Shown: piece after piece, positions 23,534 through 57,094 of the stretch
Numbering within the stretch: position 1 is the stretch's first letter
Layout of the letters: every line of letters begins with the position of its first letter
Source of the DNA: Candidatus Hatepunaea meridiana
Lineage (GTDB): Bacteria; Electryoneota; AABM5-125-24; Hatepunaeales; Hatepunaeaceae
DNA length: 64,000 nucleotides
Assembly (NCBI GenBank): GCA_030765125.1
Contig: JAVCDD010000250.1
Coordinates: 14,800 to 78,799 of the forward strand
Direction: 5' to 3'
Translations under genes and position numbers: made by a program
Notes under the pieces: generated by a model
The model's database searches: none
Told to the model about the DNA's origin: nothing
What the model saw: the letters and a program-made list of their open reading frames with translations, nothing else

Positions 23534-23561
23534 TACGGATTATAAAAAGTGTAAAGTATAA

Positions 23562-23633
23562 AAGTGCGAAAGTATGAAAGTACCAGAAAAACCTTGTGAT
23601 ATATTACTTTCACACTTTCACACTTTCGCACTT
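23562..23633. repeat. Imperfect hairpin built from tandem gaaagt / actttc words
   Basis: aagtgcgaaagtatgaaagta ... tactttcacactttcacactttcgcactt. The same words recur at 39601..39632 and 43233..43272. Confidence 0.7.
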
Positions 23634-23634
23634 A

Positions 23635-25392
23635 CTATCTGCTCTCTTTTTCTCCCTGTCGTTTAATCTCTTCACCTACTTCAGCCATTAATGGTTCGAT
23701 AATATCATCAGTAAATTTAAACTCAATTTCAGCCGCTTTAAATAAATCAGGTAAAGGTCTTGAACCACCGAGTCGTAATGCGGATTTGTATGCCTCAATA
23801 GCATTGTCAAGGTTTTTCCTGCTGTTTAGCCACACCTGCAATGCACCTAATTGAGCAATCCCATATTCGATGTAGTAGAATGGATATTCAAATATGTGAA
23901 GTTGTGCCTGCCAGCGATAACGGATAGCATCGTCCAATCCTGACCAATCCACATCGGATCCGAAGCGTTCCATCAAGCTGACAAATTGATCGCAACGTTG
24001 TTCAACGGTATGATCCGGATTATTATAAATCCAATGTTGGAAAGCATCAATAATGGCTATCCAGGATAAAATAATGATTGAGCCTTCAAAGTGTTCTCGT
24101 CGTGTGCGCGCTGCATCACCAGGGCTGTAAAACGTTTCAAGATAAGGTGCGCCTAATAACTCCATACTCATAGAAGCGACCTCACAGAACTCCATCGGTG
24201 CATGCCTGTAATCCAGTATAGACTCGTTATGAACGGCAAACTGGTGGAATGCATGACCACCCTCGTGTAATAATGTAAAAACGTCTCTATTTAAACCTAC
24301 TGCATTCATAAATATAAACGGCAAACGAATTTCAGATAGACTTGCCTGATAACCACCCGGCGCTTTACCCTTACGACTGTCAAGATCAAGTAATCCAAGG
24401 TCAATCATTTTTTGGAAGTTCTCTCCCAATTCAGCATTTACATTACCGAAAATATCCCGGCAGCCACTGACAAGCTTATCAGAAGCCTCGAATGGTCTAA
24501 GCGGTTCTCTACCTAAACGGTCACAAGCAGTATCCCAGGGGCGAACCGTATCTAGTGATAAGGCTTTACGACGTTCTTCAGTCATCTGCACGATTAATGG
24601 CACAACGTATTTCTCAACTGCATTATGAAAACTGAAACAATCATCAGGTGTATAATCGAAGCGTCCAAATCGACGGAACTGGTATTCACGGAAGTTGTCG
24701 AAGCCAGCGTTCTTTGCCACTTGAACTCTTAGTTTGAGCATCTTATCAAACAGGTCATCCAGCTTCTCAGCGTCTTCAAGTCTGCGATTAGTTGTCAGTT
24801 GCCAACTCTCGCGACGGACTTCACGATCCTTCTTCTGTAGGAATACACCCATTTGCGGGAGTGTATATTCCTTATCCTTAAAAGTAATCGTCATAGCTCC
24901 GATTGTTTTCTGATACTCTTGAGAAAGCTTGGTGATTTCAACATCAAGAGGGATATTTTCCTCACGGAATAACTCAACATTGTTCCGTCTGTTGCGTATC
25001 AGAACCTCATAATGTGCTTCATCGAGTTCATCTAGATATTTACAATCAAGAAACTTCAGATTCAGTTTATGATCGAAAGGCATGATTTTAGGTTCGATAC
25101 TCTCTACAAAGTGCAGATAAGCTTTCTCAGCCTCTTCATCGTCGGTGGCGCAAGTCATAGCAATATAGCGGCGCGATCCCTCTTCTGATATAACCGAACC
25201 TAACTCGCTTTCGTCAAGCAGCCACTGTTCAAGCGCTTCTTTGCTGTCCAGTTTCCTTTCAAGAAGTTGCTTGAACATTGGTTCAAGGTTTTTCCAATTT
25301 GAGAAATCTATCTCATTTGGCACAAAACTTCGCGGAAATTCGGGTGAAGGTCTGCTTAGTTCTGAGATGCGGTTTACAACCATATTTTCCAT
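23635..25392 (-). CDS. M3-family oligoendopeptidase (PepF-like)
   Basis: Zinc motif HEGGHAFH with a downstream E (EFCEVASM). The 585-aa length is typical of M3B peptidases. Confidence 0.9.
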   Translation of the reverse strand: MENMVVNRISELSRPSPEFPRSFVPNEIDFSNWKNLEPMFKQLLERKLDSKEALEQWLLDESELGSVISEEGSRRYIAMTCATDDEEAEKAYLHFVESIEPKIMPFDHKLNLKFLDCKYLDELDEAHYEVLIRNRRNNVELFREENIPLDVEITKLSQEYQKTIGAMTITFKDKEYTLPQMGVFLQKKDREVRRESWQLTTNRRLEDAEKLDDLFDKMLKLRVQVAKNAGFDNFREYQFRRFGRFDYTPDDCFSFHNAVEKYVVPLIVQMTEERRKALSLDTVRPWDTACDRLGREPLRPFEASDKLVSGCRDIFGNVNAELGENFQKMIDLGLLDLDSRKGKAPGGYQASLSEIRLPFIFMNAVGLNRDVFTLLHEGGHAFHQFAVHNESILDYRHAPMEFCEVASMSMELLGAPYLETFYSPGDAARTRREHFEGSIIILSWIAIIDAFQHWIYNNPDHTVEQRCDQFVSLMERFGSDVDWSGLDDAIRYRWQAQLHIFEYPFYYIEYGIAQLGALQVWLNSRKNLDNAIEAYKSALRLGGSRPLPDLFKAAEIEFKFTDDIIEPLMAEVGEEIKRQGEKESR

Positions 25393-25957: not shown

Positions 25958-26112
25958 TAATTAGTGTCTGACCGAAAACCTCCGTTTTTCTGGATATCAA
26001 CACTTTTTTGTCATTCCCGCGAAGGCGGGAATCCAGGATAAACAATAAGTTATCTGGATTCCCGCCTTCGCGGGAATGACAAAAAAGGGGCTTTCCGGTC
26101 AGACACTAATTA
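25958..26112. repeat. 155-bp nested inverted-repeat (MITE/BIME-like) element
   Basis: Outer arms are taattagtgtctgaccg (25958..25974) and its complement (26096..26112). Inner arms are a perfect 33 nt, ttttttgtcattcccgcgaaggcgggaatccag (26004..26036) and its complement (26054..26086). Each inner arm holds its own hairpin, attcccgcgaaggcgggaat. Confidence 0.85.
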
Positions 26113-31319: not shown

Positions 31320-31573
31320 GGTGTTTCCCTTTTTTAACGAAAATTACTTTTTTTAACTGCAGATTACGCAGATTTAACAGATTCTTTTTATCAGTAGATG
31401 CGACACTCTTGTCGCATGGCAACCTCGCAGGCGGTAACACCTACGCTATTATAATATACGATATTTTTGTTCTGAATACAAATTATAATTCACAGCAGAT
31501 TTAGCTGATGAAGCAGATTTCATCTGACTTTATTGATTATCAGCGTAATCTGTGTAATCTGCGGAAAATACTA

Positions 31574-32976: not shown

Positions 32977-33150
32977 TTAGTGCCTGACCGAAAAGTCCCC
33001 CTTTTGTCATTCCCGACAGGCAGAGACGCCTGTCGCTCCTAATTTCCAATTTTTAGATAACCTGCTCATGTCGCTTTCGTAATTTCTTTGAAATTAAGAA
33101 AGATCAAGCTACAAGAGTGTCGCTTCTACTATTTTTCATACTTGGTTGAG
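32977..33150. repeat. Mosaic of repeat modules shared with 25.96, 52.04, 43.75 and 54.73 kb
   Basis: ttagtgcctgaccgaaaa matches 25961..25978 apart from one mismatch, and ttttgtcattcccg matches 26006..26019. ccgacaggcagagacgcctgtcgctcctaatttcc (33012..33046) matches 52044..52078 with 3 mismatches. caagctacaagagtgtcgcttctactattttt (33105..33136) matches the right arm of the 88-bp element. Confidence 0.8.
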
Positions 33151-33176
33151 TCGCCTAACGACACTGCAACAAAGGA

Positions 33177-39534: not shown

Positions 39535-39904
39535 TTTTGTATCCTGTTTTTACTATTTGTTTGTTCAAAGTTCCAAGTTCAGAGTTCAACCTTCAGGTTG
39601 TTTCTTTCACACTTTGACACTTTCGCACTTTTCTATAAACGTAAAGGTAATTATTAGCATTGCCACTGTCAACAGATTATTCGGATAATCTGAGGACAGT
39701 ATATCTATTTTATGAATACTCTTTTAATGATCGACGAGTTATAGAGAACAGGTATAATGTCCCCCGGATTCAACGAAAATAATGTAAAAAACTCTTGCTA
39801 TTAATGTAATTTTTCATATATATTAATTTATCGAGTAATTTAACCTGTTTCTTTCCACATTTTAACTCAAGATTTGTAATTCGTTTTCTTTGGTAATGGT
39901 GATA

Positions 39905-43183: not shown

Positions 43184-43254
43184 AAAGGAAGGAGGAGCTG
43201 AAGCGCCTCCAATGATCACCCTTGGAGACGCTTCACTTTCGCACTTTCATACTT

Positions 43255-44847
43255 TCACACTTTCGCACTTTTAAAAACATCCTCAAACTCTTCCCCCTTC
43301 CTCCAAACTTCAATCTTTCCATCCTTATGAACCGCAACCTTAGCTGGTCTGGGAAAACCGCAACTGTTCGAAGCGAAGTGATCGGCGGAGTATGTTCCGG
43401 TGTGATGTATGACGAGCAATTCTCCTCTTTGCGGGAGACGATTTAGTCGAAGCTTAACCTTGCTTATCATATCGCCGGTGAAGCATAACCTTCCGGATAG
43501 AAAGGCTTCGACAGGCTCGTCGTCCGGGCGTGATGGGTAGATTTCAACCGGGAATATATCCGGCGTTATAAGGCTATGTCCCAGGTTAACGATCCCCATA
43601 TCCAGAGCAACTACATTATTGCCCTTTACTTTCTTGACGCCCATGACCTTAGCAACAGTTATTCCTGCTGTTCCCATCAATGCACGTCCCGGCTCAATGA
43701 TGAGAGTCGGTTCTCCAAGCTTCTTTAATTGTTGAGCAATATTTCCTTTGAAAATAGTAGAAGCGACACTCTTGTCGCTTGAATTTTCGTATTTCAAAGG
43801 CATTGTGCAAGCGACAAGAGTGTCGCTTCTACTATTTTCATACTTGGTAGAGTTGCTCGCTGTCAACCCGCCGTGGTTGACAGCATTACCGGAAACGCCA
43901 CCAAGAATCCTTTCCAGCATCTTAGCGCCCGGATACGCCGACCAGTATGCCTTGCCAATCCAGGGGATTTCTTCAACATCCTGACCATTTCCACCCTTAA
44001 GATAATCGGCAAATCCCATCGGTATATTATCCCAGGTCACCCATTGCTCACAGGGAAGTCTGCCATCAAGCTGATCGATCAACAGCTTCTTAAATAAAAC
44101 CCAATCCTTATATGACATGTAGGATACTGGAAAGCCGCCGCCAATATCAATATACTTAACAGACATCCCGCAATCCTGCATCTGTTGGGCAAGATTAAGC
44201 AAACTATCCATAAGCCGGTCATAGCCGGTTTCATCGCAGATTTGTGTTCCGATGTGCGCTGATATGCCTACCGGATCAATATTAGAAGCGTAGGCAGCTC
44301 GTTTAAAAACATACCCAGCCTGATCAATTGGAAAACCGAACTTTGTCCAGGGTGTTGCTGTGGATTGATCGGCAGCGGTAAGACCTTCCAACGGCATTCC
44401 GGCAAATCGTAATAATATTTTTGATTTAACATTACATCTCTTCGATACTTCGTTGACCAGATCAAGTTCCCAATCACTGTCAACTGCAATCAGAGTTCCC
44501 GCCTCAACCGCCATTTCGATGTATCTGTCGGATTTTGCGTTCCCGTTGCAAATAGTCAGATTCGGACTAATGCCTTCCTCAAGCCCCGCCCGGAGTTCGT
44601 ATTCGGATACCACATCTAATCCAAGTCCCATCGAGGCAGCAAACTTCACCGCACCACGACAGGGATTTGACTTGACTGCGAAGCTGATGAGGGTGTTCTT
44701 ATACTTCTGTAGTGCAACTTCACGAAACGACTCAACGTTGCAAGCAATCCGTTCCGTAAAAACGATATGCAGCGGCAACCCATAGGTTTCAGTCAGATGC
44801 GATATTAAATTGCTATCAAATTTATTCAGTTGGTCCATTTTTAACAT
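43255..44847 (-). CDS. Fold-type III PLP-dependent decarboxylase (Orn/DAP/Arg decarboxylase family) carrying a repeat-derived insertion
   Basis: PLP-lysine block FAVKSNP, DIGGGFP, EPGRAL and the C-terminal GRLCFTGD. Residues about 322-368 are encoded by intergenic-type palindromic repeats. Confidence 0.85.
   Translation of the reverse strand: MLKMDQLNKFDSNLISHLTETYGLPLHIVFTERIACNVESFREVALQKYKNTLISFAVKSNPCRGAVKFAASMGLGLDVVSEYELRAGLEEGISPNLTICNGNAKSDRYIEMAVEAGTLIAVDSDWELDLVNEVSKRCNVKSKILLRFAGMPLEGLTAADQSTATPWTKFGFPIDQAGYVFKRAAYASNIDPVGISAHIGTQICDETGYDRLMDSLLNLAQQMQDCGMSVKYIDIGGGFPVSYMSYKDWVLFKKLLIDQLDGRLPCEQWVTWDNIPMGFADYLKGGNGQDVEEIPWIGKAYWSAYPGAKMLERILGGVSGNAVNHGGLTASNSTKYENSRSDTLVACTMPLKYENSSDKSVASTIFKGNIAQQLKKLGEPTLIIEPGRALMGTAGITVAKVMGVKKVKGNNVVALDMGIVNLGHSLITPDIFPVEIYPSRPDDEPVEAFLSGRLCFTGDMISKVKLRLNRLPQRGELLVIHHTGTYSADHFASNSCGFPRPAKVAVHKDGKIEVWRKGEEFEDVFKSAKV
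43751..43884. repeat. 88-bp palindromic element plus gctgtcaacc...ggttgacagc module, located inside the decarboxylase CDS
   Basis: The arms at 43751..43781 and 43808..43838 are identical to the arms at 54731..54761 and 54788..54818. The 26-nt spacers are 22/26 identical in inverted orientation. The second module, 43859..43884, resembles 57017..57038. Confidence 0.9.
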
Positions 44848-46382: not shown

Positions 46383-46400
46383 TGTTCTAAAGAACTTTTT

Positions 46401-46470
46401 CACCGCAGAGGGCGCAAAGATAACAGAGAAGCATAATAATTACTTTGCGTTCTCTGCGATCTCTGCGGTA
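46401..46470. repeat. accgcagag ... ctctgcggt hairpin repeat, copy 1
   Basis: caccgcagagggcgcaaag ... ctttgcgttctctgcgatctctgcggt. Related copies lie at 55555..55618, 56956..56984 (half copy) and 48116..48138 (half copy). Confidence 0.75.
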
Positions 46471-46477
46471 AAACAAA

Positions 46478-47854
46478 TCACTGCTTGATCTCATACTGCT
46501 TCATCATCGTTTGAAAATTCCTTCGCTGCATTCCGACTTCTCTGGCAGCGCGGGTCACATTTCCATTTGATCGGCGTAAAGCCTCGGTAACGAACGCTTT
46601 CTCAACCTCAGTAACTGCCGCATGGCGTAATCTCTTTTTAACCGATTTAAGTTCATTAACTGTTGACGGAGGTAGCCCTGACCATACTGAGGATTGGACA
46701 TCTCCCATAACCTGTTGATAATGCATAAGATCAACCGTATCCGATTCGCATACTGAGACCATCCGTTCTACACATTGCGATAATTCGCGTATATTTTTAT
46801 GCCAGTGACGATGTTGCAGCTTTGTCATCAGGTTTCCCTCCACTTTGCTCACAGGTCGGTTATATCTTTTGGCAAAACGACGGAGTATTCGATAGACAAG
46901 AGCGGGAATATCCTCGCTTCGTTCGAATAGTGAAGGTAGATAAATTGGGAAAAATTCGAGGTCGCGATAGAAAGATTCTAAGAGTTTCCCCTGCCTGACC
47001 GCAGATTGAAGGTTTCTTTCCGTGCCAAGTATGATTCTGCACGATAGTGGACGCGAGTTTATACCCCTTAACGGCATATTGCGACGTTCTTTTATCGCAG
47101 AAAGCAAGCGTGTCTGATCGTTGGTTGCAAGTACTGTGATTTCCGGTATATAAAAGGTTCCGTTGCCTGCTTCTTCCATTTTACCCGGGAAGTAAGTACT
47201 GCTGCTGAATTCTCTCGCTACGTATCCGAAGAGCTGTTCAGATATAGTCGGTGATTCTGCACGTATTGGTTCAAACATAACGAAAGGTTCAAGTTTTCGA
47301 GGACTGGCATCGTGGATTGTCATCGCAACGCGTCTCTTTCCTGTTCCCGGAGCGCCGATTATCAATACATTAGTGCCTCTTGCAGATATCAGTGAGATCA
47401 AACGGAATATCTTCTGAATTGCAGGACCCATCCAGATCAACTCGTCAAAATCACCAACACTCTTCACCTTGCGAACATCCCTAGCTTGAAGCAGAACAGC
47501 ACGCAACTGAAGTGCGCGACTCATCACTGCGTGCAGATCATCCGGTGTGAACGGTTTAGGCAAATATTCGTGACCACCTGGCTTCATTGCTTCAACCGCA
47601 GCAGCAATCGAAGCTGGTCCAACGATAAACACTATCGCCGTTTCGGGTGAAAGTTCTTTCAATCGCTTCAACAGGTCTGTTTTGGGATCCCCTATTAGCT
47701 TTAGATCGATGAACATCACGTCATATTCAGCTTCGGATTGTTCGATTTTAGTAATTGCTTCTGAAGGTGTTAGAGCTGTTTCAACAGAATATCCATCTTT
47801 TAACAAAGTGCGTGAACAACCCTGCACTACAGCTAACTCATCATCAATTATCAA
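46478..47854 (-). CDS. NtrC-like response regulator (receiver, degenerate AAA+ domain and Fis-type HTH)
   Basis: Receiver (IIDDE ... MFIDLKL ... KPF), Walker A GAPGTGKR and C-terminal HTH AAREVGMQRRNFQTMMKQY. The start is TTG, and an N-terminal extension cannot be excluded. Confidence 0.75.
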   Translation of the reverse strand: MIIDDELAVVQGCSRTLLKDGYSVETALTPSEAITKIEQSEAEYDVMFIDLKLIGDPKTDLLKRLKELSPETAIVFIVGPASIAAAVEAMKPGGHEYLPKPFTPDDLHAVMSRALQLRAVLLQARDVRKVKSVGDFDELIWMGPAIQKIFRLISLISARGTNVLIIGAPGTGKRRVAMTIHDASPRKLEPFVMFEPIRAESPTISEQLFGYVAREFSSSTYFPGKMEEAGNGTFYIPEITVLATNDQTRLLSAIKERRNMPLRGINSRPLSCRIILGTERNLQSAVRQGKLLESFYRDLEFFPIYLPSLFERSEDIPALVYRILRRFAKRYNRPVSKVEGNLMTKLQHRHWHKNIRELSQCVERMVSVCESDTVDLMHYQQVMGDVQSSVWSGLPPSTVNELKSVKKRLRHAAVTEVEKAFVTEALRRSNGNVTRAAREVGMQRRNFQTMMKQYEIKQ

Positions 47855-48152
47855 TATGTGAATGGGATTTTCGGAGATGTTTCCTCCTGTTATACCGGTA
47901 ACGTTTAGTATAGTTGTATTTTATATTATAAGGCTTGCTTACCTTATTGGAAAATGTTATTTTATTAATAGTAATGCAGGTTTTTAAGTGAAACAAGTTC
48001 AAATACGAGCATTAGCGCTTAATCTTACAATAAATTATACAGTTATCTTAAGAAATCCTAAGATACTACGATTCAAAGCAGTATAAGTAGTGCCTGATTT
48101 ACCCAAGTATGAAAGCCTCTGCGTCCTCTGCGGTGCAATTATCTGGAAAAGC

Positions 48153-51932: not shown

Positions 51933-51946
51933 TTTTCAGTAGATCA

Positions 51947-52142
51947 GACACTCTCAGGCTGTCTGAGAATAACTAATCGGGAGCGACAGGCGTCCCTGCC
52001 TGTCGTGTATGTTGCTAAATATCAATATATAAGCCGACAGACAGGGACGCCTGTCGCTCCTGATTTCCTGTTTTCGGACAGCTTGCTCTTGTCTGACTCG
52101 TGGTCTGTCGGACAAGAGTGTCCAACCTACTGATGAAATCAT
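51947..52142. repeat. About 195-bp composite nested palindrome
   Basis: The inner arms are 26 nt, ggagcgacaggcgtccctgcctgtcg (51990..52015) and the complement at 52045..52070, with 1 mismatch. The outer arms are imperfect, cagtagatcagacactct / agagtgtccaacctactg. The 72-aa track ORF here is an artefact of the repeat. Confidence 0.85.
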
Positions 52143-54730: not shown

Positions 54731-54818
54731 AAAATAGTAGAAGCGACACTCTTGTCGCTTGCACAACGTCTTTGAAATAAGAAAGTTCAAGCGACAAGAG
54801 TGTCGCTTCTACTATTTT
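54731..54818. repeat. 88-bp palindromic element (reference copy): perfect 31-nt arms and a 26-nt spacer
   Basis: aaaatagtagaagcgacactcttgtcgcttg (54731..54761) and its exact reverse complement (54788..54818). Confidence 0.95.
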
Positions 54819-54829
54819 TAAAGGAAAAT

Positions 54830-55546
54830 ATGGCAATTCTCGAACTGAAAGATGTATCTTATATTTACCCGGGTTCTACCGGAGCTGCTCTGGATAATAT
54901 TTCGTTAATAATAGAGACCGGTCAACATATTGCTCTATTGGGCGCTAATGGCAGCGGGAAAAGCACTTTGGCAGGGATTGCTGCCGGGCTGTTCAATCCA
55001 ACTTCTGGTGAGGTAATTTCGTCAGGGAATGAGAGCTATCGTGGTTGGAACGGCATGGGATTACTCTTCCAGAATCCTGACGAACAACTGTTATGCCAGA
55101 ATGTTGAGAGTGAAATTGCTTGGGGCTTGGAAAATATTGGCGTTCATCCGGATGAGATGAGAGTAAGGGTTTGCGAAACACTTGAGATGTTTGAATTGAC
55201 AAATAAAGCTAAGACTTCCCCAGATACCTTAAGTGACGGTTGGAAACAGATTACAGCATTAGCTGCAATAGTTGCAATGCATCCTGATTTTTTAATCCTT
55301 GATGAAGTAACTGCATTCTTAGATCCTTATTGGACAACAAAGATACGAAGAATGATCGGAAAACTTACCGAAAGGTCGGGATTATTGTGGATTTCAACAA
55401 ATACTATTGATGCGATGCATGCTGATGAAGTCCTTGTAATCCGGAATGGACAGATAGTAACCAAAGGAACACCGCAAGTAGTCCTGAACACTGAACTGCT
55501 TAAAAATGCAGGAATTGAACCCATACATAATTCGATTGAAAGATAA
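54830..55546 (+). CDS. ABC ATPase, ECF-transporter EcfA-like, with variant signature and H-loop
   Basis: I trimmed the start to the ATG at 54830, because the track N-terminus is repeat-derived. Walker A GANGSGKST, Q-loop LLFQNPDEQL, signature LSDGWKQ, Walker B FLILDEV, and H-loop position reading STN. Confidence 0.85.
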   Translation: MAILELKDVSYIYPGSTGAALDNISLIIETGQHIALLGANGSGKSTLAGIAAGLFNPTSGEVISSGNESYRGWNGMGLLFQNPDEQLLCQNVESEIAWGLENIGVHPDEMRVRVCETLEMFELTNKAKTSPDTLSDGWKQITALAAIVAMHPDFLILDEVTAFLDPYWTTKIRRMIGKLTERSGLLWISTNTIDAMHADEVLVIRNGQIVTKGTPQVVLNTELLKNAGIEPIHNSIER

Positions 55547-55554
55547 AGTAAGAA

Positions 55555-55618
55555 TCCACCGCAGAGTTCGCAAAGAACACAATTACCTCTCTGTGTTCTC
55601 TGCGCCCTCTGCGGTAAA
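55555..55618. repeat. accgcagag ... ctctgcggt hairpin repeat, copy 2
   Basis: accgcagag (55558..55566) / ctctgcggt (55607..55615), with an inner agaacaca / tgtgttct pairing. Confidence 0.75.
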
Positions 55619-55635
55619 AAACATGAGGAGAGAAA

Positions 55636-56949
55636 ATGAAACACCTTAGAATGCTCATTTTACTAACGGTTTTTATCAGTATTGTACTGTCAATTGGCAT
55701 TTTGGGTTGTAGTGGATCAACCACACCTTATGATCCAAACAATGATCCGAATCAAAGCCCGCCGCTGCCGCCGAGCAGCCTGTCAGCGGTTGCTGTATCG
55801 CTAACTGAGATTAGACTGACCTGGCGTGATAGGTCGTCGAACGAATCCGGATTCGAGTTATTTGAAAGCGTTGATTCCGACACAAATTTCTCGCTTATTC
55901 AACGCACTAATCAAAATGTAGAAATCTATGTATTTAACGGCAAATCCAGGGATCACGATTATTACTACAAAATAAGAGCGATCAATGAATTCGGAGCATC
56001 CAGGTTTACTGATCAAGTAACGGTAACCGGTGGAGCATTGATATTAACGATAGACTCTGGAGACAGTCCTGTGCTTTCGCTGGCATATAGTCCTCAAGGA
56101 AATTATATCATCGCTGGCTGCGGTGATTATCGAGTGCGTCGTTACGATGCAAGGAGCGGTGAAATGCTACAGAAGTTAGAAGGACATACAAACCTTGTCT
56201 ATGGTATAGCTTACAGCCCTGACAGTACTCGCTGGGCTTCAGGTTCTGACGATGAAACCATTATGGTCTGGAGTATGCTGAATCACCGGCTGGAATGGAC
56301 GCTTTATGACGATGATATGGGTGCGGTTCGCTCCATGGAATTCAGTTATGATGGTCGTTATCTTGCAGCGTTAAGTGGTTATGTTTACATCTGGGATATG
56401 GAAACGGGAGACCTGGCATATAAAATAGGTGATGAGGAATCAGGTGGAGTCGGCAGCTTTGCATATCACCCGGATGGTCGGCATATGATACTCTCTTTAG
56501 ATAATAAAATTCAGATATGGGAACCCGGTATAGTTGATTCAGCTTTATTGGGTAGACGTAGTATTTATCATATGGGTAGATTTACAATTAGTCCGGATGG
56601 TGAATACCTGGCAGGTGTAAGCAATAGTAATATTGTAGTCATGCAAATAATTAATAACAACGGTGAATTAGACATTGACACAACTGCTGTAGTTGCATCA
56701 TTAACAGAATCAGATGGTGGTCATACCGATGCAATTTATGCTCTGGATTTCAGCCCGGACGGTTTATATCTTGCTTCCGGCTCCCGCGATGATAACGTGA
56801 AGGTTTGGGATGCCGTAAACTTCACCTTGTTAGCCACAATGGATGCGCATGATGTTGCTGTCTACTGTCTTGCATTCAGTTCCAGCGGTGTGCACCTTGC
56901 TACGGGCGGTGGTGATACTAATATTAAGATTTGGAGTACGTTCTTCTGA
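55636..56949 (+). CDS. Lipoprotein with a fibronectin type III domain and a WD40 beta-propeller
   Basis: Lipobox ILGCSG. FN3-like LTWRDRSSNESGFELFES...YYYKIRAIN. Multiple WD40 units (GHT..VY.IAYSPD......SGS.D.T..VW). Confidence 0.85.
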   Translation: MKHLRMLILLTVFISIVLSIGILGCSGSTTPYDPNNDPNQSPPLPPSSLSAVAVSLTEIRLTWRDRSSNESGFELFESVDSDTNFSLIQRTNQNVEIYVFNGKSRDHDYYYKIRAINEFGASRFTDQVTVTGGALILTIDSGDSPVLSLAYSPQGNYIIAGCGDYRVRRYDARSGEMLQKLEGHTNLVYGIAYSPDSTRWASGSDDETIMVWSMLNHRLEWTLYDDDMGAVRSMEFSYDGRYLAALSGYVYIWDMETGDLAYKIGDEESGGVGSFAYHPDGRHMILSLDNKIQIWEPGIVDSALLGRRSIYHMGRFTISPDGEYLAGVSNSNIVVMQIINNNGELDIDTTAVVASLTESDGGHTDAIYALDFSPDGLYLASGSRDDNVKVWDAVNFTLLATMDAHDVAVYCLAFSSSGVHLATGGGDTNIKIWSTFF

Positions 56950-57094
56950 TTCTTGCACCGCAGAGGACGCAGAGAGCACAGAGGAAATTTTCCCATATCA
57001 ACCCGCTGTCAATCCGCTGTCAATCCGCCGCGGTTGACATCATTACCAAGTGTGTGCTGTCAAGTGCGGTGACTTGACAGCCGTTTAGGGTTTT

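Follow-up and report, generated by a model that had tools for sequence, protein, structure and literature searches.

Repetitive extragenic palindromic (REP) sequences have been divided into a GTAG and a CGTC super-family, and the GTAG REPs are tied to REP-associated tyrosine transposases (RAYTs) (Di Nocera et al., 2013, PMC3733652). A RAYT gene that is bracketed by its REPs has been termed a 'REPtron' (PMC3733652). In the same survey, GTAG REPs were found in Proteobacteria, Cyanobacteria, Chloroflexi and the PVC (Planctomycetes, Verrucomicrobia, Chlamydiae) group, whereas Bacteroidetes and Chlorobi held CGTC REPs only. Many GTAG REP monomers and dimers inserted in frame within genes were catalogued, most of them in the verrucomicrobium Opitutus terrae; over half of the intragenic inserts were dimers or groups encoding 20-30 residues, with clusters of up to 43-82 residues (PMC3733652). 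Two of the Rickettsia palindromic elements (RPEs), RPE-4 and RPE-6, were recognized as CGTC REPs (PMC3733652). In this study, we analysed a 64-kb stretch of contig JAVCDD010000250.1 of Candidatus Hatepunaea meridiana (hereafter the window), in which a palindromic repeat lies inside the coding sequence of a pyridoxal phosphate (PLP)-dependent decarboxylase. Our favoured explanation, to which we assign a probability of roughly 0.8, is that a composite, non-autonomous REP-type mobile element has inserted in the decarboxylase coding sequence of an uncultured Calditrichota-like bacterium of the FCB (Fibrobacteres, Chlorobi, Bacteroidetes) group.

The repeat resembles GTAG REPs in its 5' GTAG tag and short stem-loop, and it resembles REPINs (REP doublets forming hairpins) in that inverted doublets are able to form one long hairpin and appear, from the copies seen, to be multi-copy, dispersed and mostly intergenic (Nunvar et al., 2010; Bertels & Rainey, 2011, PMC3116915; PMC3733652). 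As in REPtrons, REP units bracket a Y1/HUH transposase gene at loci L035, L054, L073 and L079, all of them outside the window. In contrast to known REPINs, however, the element described here combines three hairpins and has asymmetric flanks, one of which is Shine-Dalgarno-like. Unlike the GTAG REPs surveyed in 2013, it resides in an FCB-type, Calditrichota-like host, a lineage from which no GTAG REPs were reported at that time (PMC3733652). The original prediction, made from the sequence of the window, stated that this behaviour had not been described in an FCB-type genome; this is consistent with the survey, as GTAG REPs are absent from its findings in Bacteroidetes and Chlorobi (PMC3733652). 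The REP sequence AAGCGACA-CTCT-TGTCGCTT and its peptides were not found in searchable paper text.

The intragenic GTAG REPs of O. terrae are likewise in-frame monomers or dimers in genes of known proteins, where they contribute 8-30 extra residues that are read as tolerated in loops or linkers (PMC3733652). The O. terrae families differ in sequence, one of them encoding VGPALAAG. Moreover, the insert observed here, with 46 aa encoded by a three-unit composite, is longer and belongs to a different phylum and to a metabolic PLP enzyme, whereas DNA-repair genes were emphasised for O. terrae (PMC3733652). RPEs, as far as they are summarised in PMC3733652 and PMC10969869, share with our element that they are palindromic repeats of about 100-150 bp lying in frame in unrelated genes, that they encode a conserved peptide compatible with the host fold and that one frame is used recurrently (Ogata et al., 2000). 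However, RPE-4 and RPE-6 carry a CGTC tag and lack a dedicated transposase, whereas the element of the window is GTAG-tagged and has RAYT-like partners elsewhere (PMC3733652); its host is, in addition, a free-living environmental bacterium and not an obligate intracellular one. By tag type and host, membership in the RPE families is not expected, and the behaviour alone is shared. The original prediction of an RPE-like event was therefore apt for the behaviour, i.e. the in-frame insertion of a dispersed palindrome that is otherwise intergenic, but not for the type of element, which is a GTAG-tagged REP doublet, and such behaviour is not confined to Rickettsia (PMC3733652). The phenomenon is already known; new are the host lineage, the sequence family, the three-hairpin composite and the size of 46 aa. 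The in-frame colonisation of protein genes by REP-type palindromes is best known from the RPEs and from the GTAG REPs of Opitutus; with the present case, it would include a free-living lineage of the FCB group and a REP family of new sequence.

The decarboxylase and its inserted segment

The decarboxylase was aligned with 23 and then with 119 homologues, which share 45-62% BLAST identity with it and are mostly 472-500 aa long. The columns of the insert hold 0-1 residues in 119 of the 119 homologues, and the distance from M310 to E385 is 76 aa in the decarboxylase vs 24-31 aa in all others. Judged by this alignment, which the original prediction had itself named as a check, the segment is an insertion relative to the homologues, lineage-specific and in frame. 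The insert peptide A322-K367 (AVNHGGLTASNSTKYENSRSDTLVACTMPLKYENSSDKSVASTIFK) sits between DIGGGFP (233-240) and EPGRAL (385-390). The repeat had been predicted to encode about residues 322-368; the position between the two motifs holds, while the extent could be refined to 46 aa with a boundary ambiguous by 6 nt, in that G368-N369 (43741-43746) are possibly element-derived too. From the GGG loop to EPGR there are about 22 residues in solved relatives, about 90 in the family and 135 in the decarboxylase. Therefore, the insertion lies in a region that is already variable in length. No REP copies were detected on contig L089, which encodes the closest homologue of the decarboxylase (62% protein identity).

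As had been noted from the sequence, the reading frame stays open across the repeat, and the 530-aa open reading frame (ORF) contains both Orn_Arg_deC_N (Pfam PF02784, 2.4e-35) and Orn_DAP_Arg_deC (PF00278). The composite is stop-free in only two of the six frames, and the insert uses one of these two. The inserted length is a multiple of three and the element lies in a stop-free frame, so that the ORF is preserved and a 46-residue polar, probably disordered loop is gained. This loop is placed just before the last barrel helix, ahead of the EPGR strand. The insertion accounts for an odd low-complexity segment that could be mistaken in annotation for a domain, a frameshift or an assembly error.

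The catalytic residues of the enzyme are intact. The protein is lysA-like, yet scores under the curated lysA equivalog cut-off, and its structural model matches diaminopimelate decarboxylases in Foldseek (TM 0.83-0.88; 0.83-0.84 for 2p3e). Across the 120 aligned sequences, 58 columns are invariant, and the decarboxylase retains every one of them, including the PLP lysine K59, the GGG phosphate loop (236-238), EPGR (385-388), C455 and Y486; H198, the column of which is nearly invariant, is also present. The PLP-binding barrel, the C-terminal sheet domain and the catalytic residues that mark the family were all found. An AlphaFold2 model based on the 120-sequence alignment reached a mean pLDDT (predicted local distance difference test) of 87.9 and a pTM (predicted template modelling score) of 0.89. 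Only residues 325-360, i.e. the insert, fall under a pLDDT of 50. This stretch lies between helix 308-316 and helix 370-376, the latter preceding the strand that leads into EPGR, and the insert is polar. The insert is predicted to be unstructured, which is consistent with a tolerated surface excursion; the earlier idea of a tolerated loop thus gains support from a model in which the segment is left unstructured between two confident helices. From this model and the retained residues, we infer that the enzyme probably tolerates the loop and remains functional.

Two other origins of the segment were considered and rejected. An intein, an intron or a translational bypass was ruled out, because the segment copies an intergenic repeat, has no stop codon following its upstream junction and falls far short of the size of an intein. 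It was also ruled out that the intergenic copies derive from the gene, as the 119 homologues lack the segment and the copies are found in unrelated contexts. At the other end of the decarboxylase, the last five codons and the stop are within a different dispersed repeat, of the ACTTTCACACTTTCGCACTTT family (window 43231-43273; also 23553-23635 and 39591-39635); the C-terminus is therefore also repeat-derived.

The FCB-type label that the original prediction had given to the window is reasonable. The best named matches of the UvrB protein of the window are Calditrichota/Calditrichaeota metagenome-assembled genomes (MAGs) with 72-73% identity, followed by Zixibacteria and KSB1. The named homologues of the decarboxylase are also Calditrichaeota, and the neighbouring gene ends with a type-IX secretion sorting domain. 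All features are listed in Table 1.

Table 1. Location of the decarboxylase gene, its insertion, the parts of the element and related repeats in the 64-kb window (w/ positions numbered from the first letter of the window).
Feature	Position	Strand	Description
Host gene, PLP-dependent Orn/DAP/Arg-decarboxylase family	43255..44847	-	Intact ORF, 530 aa
In-frame insertion, 138 nt	43747..43884	-	Encodes A322-K367 (46 aa); absent from 119 homologues
Y flank, Shine-Dalgarno-like element end	43741..43750	-	Sense strand CAAAGGAAAT; encodes K367-G368-N369
REP unit 1 (left arm)	43751..43781	+	AAAATA-GTAG-AAGCGACA-CTCT-TGTCGCTT-G; GTAG tag on + strand
Spacer, 26 nt, loop of doublet hairpin	43782..43807	.	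Conserved in metagenomic copies
REP unit 2 (right arm), perfect inverted copy of unit 1	43808..43838	-	GTAG tag on - strand
X flank, third GTAG-tagged unit	43839..43884	+	Linker with GTAG at 43847-43850 and hairpin GCTGTCAAC-N8-GTTGACAGC (43859-43884)
REP hairpin, single-strand form			GTAG-AAGCGACACTCTTGTCGCTT
Single intergenic REP variant, compensatory stem change	31393..31418	+	GTAG-ATGCGACA-CTCT-TGTCGCAT
Partial intergenic copy	33048..33170	-	Right arm, spacer, left-arm remnant, X flank
Sister intergenic copy	54731..54829	+	Doublet 54731-54818 and Y flank; ends 11 nt upstream of an ABC-ATPase start codon (ATG, 54830)
Intergenic hairpin related to the X-flank hairpin	57016..57041	+	3 mismatches

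Anatomy of the element and its copies in the window

The core of the element is an 88-bp palindrome (43751-43838) in which two inverted 31-nt arms enclose a 26-nt spacer, the inverted repeat being perfect over 33 nt. Within each REP unit, GTAG is followed by an 8-bp stem (AAGCGACA/TGTCGCTT) closed by the 4-nt loop CTCT, so that a short stem-loop palindrome carries GTAG at the 5' foot of its hairpin. The two REPs are inverted, are separated by a short spacer and can form a single long hairpin. Each arm is a GTAG-type REP, and the two inverted REPs are a REPIN-like doublet. As RNA, the insert is predicted to form a perfect stem of 33 bp (dG -79.7 kcal/mol, z -12.4).

Searched with up to 3 mismatches, the arm pattern gave five matches in the window vs 0 expected in 100 shuffles. 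The matches at 43751, 43808, 54731 and 54788 are perfect, in line with the earlier observation that the arms in the gene are identical to those of the intergenic element at 54731..54818, and the match at 33105 has 1 mismatch. The spacer (43782-43807) is identical to that of the intergenic copy (54762-54787) at 22 of 26 positions after reverse complementation. This reversal, which had also been reported, was confirmed; the spacer appears reversed because the whole element in the gene is the reverse complement of the 54731 copy, with 95% identity over 97 nt. Relative to the gene sense strand, both copies share the same orientation. When the flanks are included, the gene copy has 92% identity with the 54731 copy (over 106 nt), the 33126 copy and the copy at locus L080, which is described below. 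In total, two full copies, one partial copy and one single REP were identified in the window by nhmmer, corresponding to six REP units at four sites, three of which are intergenic. A search for known RNA families (Rfam, gathering threshold) returned two tRNAs only.

The doublet is flanked by two different sequences, here called X and Y. In the X flank, a small variable hairpin is followed by GCRACTCAAC-nAAGTATGA, the opposite strand of which starts with GT[A/T]G. X is joined to the arm in eight copies (window 43829, window 33126, L074, L075, L077, L080, L083 and L088), and its hairpin recurs at 57016-57041 with 3 mismatches vs 0 expected. The original prediction had regarded this hairpin (43859-43884) as a second module immediately next to the palindrome. 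Its recurrence was confirmed; however, it lies 20 nt from the arm and is not separate, but the third hairpin of one composite. The motif of the Y flank is TTTTyAAAGGRAAT. AAAGGRAAT follows the arm in about 10 copies, and in seven of these an ORF starts 12-16 nt downstream. Among the copies with the Y end near a start codon are window 54819-54832, L075, L081, L083, L084, L087 and L088. As the Y end resembles a Shine-Dalgarno sequence, the element may supply or target ribosome-binding sites.

X, the doublet and Y cover the entire insertion. Therefore, the insertion reflects one event with a three-hairpin composite of about 140 nt. The element comprises in total about 138-144 nt and is composed of the third GTAG hairpin, the two inverted GTAG REPs and the Shine-Dalgarno-like tail. 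The possibility that X and Y form a separate repeat which hosts the doublet was rejected: no X-Y junction without a doublet was found, and X is always joined to an arm.

The 26-nt spacer was found in both orientations relative to the X and Y flanks, with four copies each: window 43751, window 54731, L080 and L081 in one orientation, and L075, L077, L083 and L088 in the other. The pattern is reminiscent of a loop that flips between its perfect inverted repeats (flip/flop). Both intragenic copies have the same orientation, and this is the only one that avoids a stop codon in the frame used; the opposite orientation gives GCT TGA.

Recurrence in other genes and genomes

A gene from the metagenome sample Ga0075114 (locus L080) carries the composite in the same orientation and frame as the decarboxylase. 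It encodes an 809-aa molybdopterin subunit of the xanthine-dehydrogenase family, in which the segment from the composite reads …QQNMKNSRSDTLVACGMSLKYESSSDKSVASTIFQRN… (also given as …NSRSDTLVACGMSLKYESSSDKSVASTIF…). The homologues are mostly 757-770 aa long and lack the segment. It is likewise missing from the structure of 4-hydroxybenzoyl-CoA reductase (1rm6), in which 9 residues face residues 429-482 of the L080 protein. L080 is a second, independent insertion in the same frame in another enzyme. Thus far, two of about 14 copies seen in the lineage are intragenic (decarboxylase and L080). Two independent insertions in the same frame would offer a clean natural example of selection that filters insertions to coding-compatible ones. 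At the loop that holds the doublet in L080, two of its homologues (P0127 and P0128) harbor a different palindromic repeat in frame. The peptides of this repeat (…CHSRESGNPE…FRGND…) correspond to the GTCATTCCCGCGAAGGCGGGAAT family, which also occurs in the window as a perfect 34-nt inverted repeat (26003-26087).

In-frame copies of the REP found in the decarboxylase were also observed in verrucomicrobial genes, namely in PurL (between the synthetase and glutaminase domains), in a U32 peptidase and in an alpha/beta hydrolase, with Pfam domains on both sides of the REP or spanning it. In the U32 peptidase, a single REP encoding SDKSVAST is located at the same position in two Puniceicoccaceae MAGs (L028 3402-3423 and L031 6908-6929). 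An in-frame REP can therefore persist through speciation. SRSDTLVA, SDKSVAST and VEATLLSL can serve as signatures of translated REPs in metagenomic protein databases.

Outside the window, genomes (one per species) were scanned with the pattern GTAGNNGCGACACTCTTGTCGC, which yielded at least 73 loci (L001-L073). Most of the matches listed are from Verrucomicrobiota (Opitutia, Puniceicoccaceae, Lentimonas), and a few are from other phyla. The 22-nt REP core is present in these loci with compensatory changes at the stem base. The 3' side covaries with the two bases that follow GTAG (AA..TT, CA..TG, GG..CC and GC..GC; 97 occurrences among the matches listed), and the stem is therefore extended by compensatory change. 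The stem is immediately preceded by GTAG not only in the two arms but also in the 31393 variant and in every locus retrieved, although for the loci outside the window GTAG formed part of the search pattern. The REP units occur as singletons, as inverted doublets with a pitch of 38-60 nt and as 45-46-nt tandem arrays. With the lineage-specific version of the arm, a metagenome scan returned 15 contigs, 11 of which are from sample Ga0075114. Most of these contigs have a GC content of 39-46% (window, 42%), and they contain doublets of the same geometry as in the window. Several contigs, among them contigs from Ga0075114, end inside the element, as expected for a multi-copy repeat. A blastn comparison of the window with the 15 metagenome loci gave matches to the repeats only, and a comparison with the 73 genome loci gave no match.

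At L035 and L079, a Y1_Tnp (IS200-like) gene encoding about 190 aa has REP doublets on either side at distances of 15-45 nt, and at L054 and L073 a related Y1_Tnp gene adjoins REPs. The transposases of L035, L073 and L079 exceed the own cut-off of the Pfam family Y1_Tnp, and their best NCBIfam model is the REP-associated tyrosine transposase NF047646 (47-50 bits, E about 1e-13). The HUH motif and the tyrosine of the RAYT-like proteins align with ISDra2 TnpA. These three proteins are Y1 transposases that are RAYT-like by context. RAYTs are HUH/Y1 single-strand transposases of the IS200/IS605 superfamily. Potentially, a RAYT encoded elsewhere in the genome would mobilise the element in trans via single-stranded DNA hairpins, as proposed for REPINs, and selection would remove insertions in other frames or orientations or in essential structure.

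The core GTAGAAGCGACACTCTTGTCGCTT (22-24 nt) was found in many Verrucomicrobiota MAGs as well as in the 42%-GC Calditrichota-like lineage, and variants of the REP stem were found in MAGs labelled Fimbriimonadales, Nitrospinota and Yoonia. This distribution suggests either that one REP/RAYT family has spread across phyla or that some MAGs are contaminated. A further-reaching combination of these observations is speculative and, in our judgement, unlikely: one RAYT/REP system with an identical 22-24-nt core would operate in Verrucomicrobiota and in the unrelated 42%-GC FCB lineage, where the REP would have grown into a three-hairpin composite, coding-compatible in one frame and entering enzyme loops at least twice in that frame, serving with its Shine-Dalgarno-like end 12-16 nt before start codons as a portable hairpin and ribosome-binding site in 5' untranslated regions, and flipping its loop. 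One system in both phyla would imply cross-phylum transfer. RAYT/REP systems are usually described as vertically inherited. If this combination were true, the element would quite generally generate variation in free-living bacteria, both in gene regulation and in protein loops.

Alternative explanations and further repeats of the window

Several observations weigh against the insertion of a RAYT-mobilised REP element. The RAYT-like proteins score about 50 bits, while the curated cut-off of NF047646 is 80, so that they stay below the RAYT threshold. No RAYT gene was detected in the 64-kb window (tblastn gave noise only) or in the Ga0075114 contigs. The 33-bp perfect mRNA stem could itself impair expression. 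Furthermore, weak direct repeats flank the insert (GGTAAT / GGAAAT) and the core of the 54731 copy (GGAAATATG / GGAAAATATG). IS200/IS605-type transposition is not expected to duplicate its target. The candidate target-site duplications at both copies are weak or imperfect and overlap sequence that is conserved between copies.

Among the alternatives, a young pseudogene survives best, although it is improbable. Here, the insertion would have killed the gene, and the frame would be open only because there has been too little time for decay. The arms are 100% identical to those of another copy and the composite is 92% identical to others, which suggests a recent event, and the mRNA stem, being perfect, could prevent expression or draw in an RNase that cuts double strands. 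This is countered by an insert with a length that is a multiple of three and in one of the two open frames out of six, and by the use of the same frame in the independent L080 insertion. Moreover, an orthologous in-frame REP has been kept in two diverged verrucomicrobial MAGs (L028 and L031), all invariant catalytic residues of the decarboxylase are intact, and the insert lies in a region in which the family is variable and extended.

A conventional miniature inverted-repeat transposable element (MITE) is decidedly improbable. In this case, the element would be a deletion derivative of an insertion sequence with a DDE transposase, and the 31-33-nt arms would be its terminal inverted repeats instead of parts of a RAYT-mobilised REPIN. 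MITEs possess terminal inverted repeats and target duplications that are made by DDE transposases. Long and perfect terminal inverted repeats, the weak direct repeats flanking two copies and the failure to find a RAYT in the lineage of the window are in favour of such an origin. Intragenic MITEs such as ERIC, as far as they are cited in PMC10969869, are also small non-autonomous repeats that carry open frames and give in-frame fusions (Delihas, 2007). However, the arms here are autonomous REP units and no clear duplication was seen. Each arm is itself a GTAG-tagged stem-loop that is also found singly, in tandem arrays and in doublets with varying pitch, a behaviour of REPs and of bacterial interspersed mosaic elements but not of MITEs. 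In addition, RAYT-like genes are bracketed by REP units at four loci, and the candidate direct repeats, given their overlap with conserved sequence, are more likely part of the element.

An assembly artefact or a minority strain variant, in which the assembler spliced the repeat in or only part of the population carries it, is very improbable: the repeat family is multi-copy with arms exceeding common k-mers, related contigs break at the repeat and the window is apparently metagenome-derived, exact-protein look-ups of the decarboxylase and of the neighbouring peptidase having given no record elsewhere, but both flanks belong to the same gene, collinear and in the same frame, as a chimeric repeat join would not give, assemblers collapse or break at repeats and do not insert them, and an independent JGI assembly has the same kind of in-frame insertion in another gene. 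We retain the in-frame insertion of a composite REP-type element as the explanation to be preferred.

Apart from this element, the window contains an unusual wealth of distinct families of short palindromic repeats. One composite palindrome, about 200 nt long (51937-52138), carries GTAG tags at its ends (TCAGTAGATCAGACACTCT … AAGAGTGTCCAACCTACTGA) and encloses a nested hairpin (GGGAGCGACAGGCGTCCCTGCCTGTCG); part of it recurs beside the partial REP copy (33013-33072; 33008-33072). A further intergenic repeat family, CACCGCAGAGGRCGCAGAG / CTCTGCG…CTCTGCGGTG, is located at several gene boundaries (46396-46478, 48117-48150, 55554-55624 and 56941-56983).

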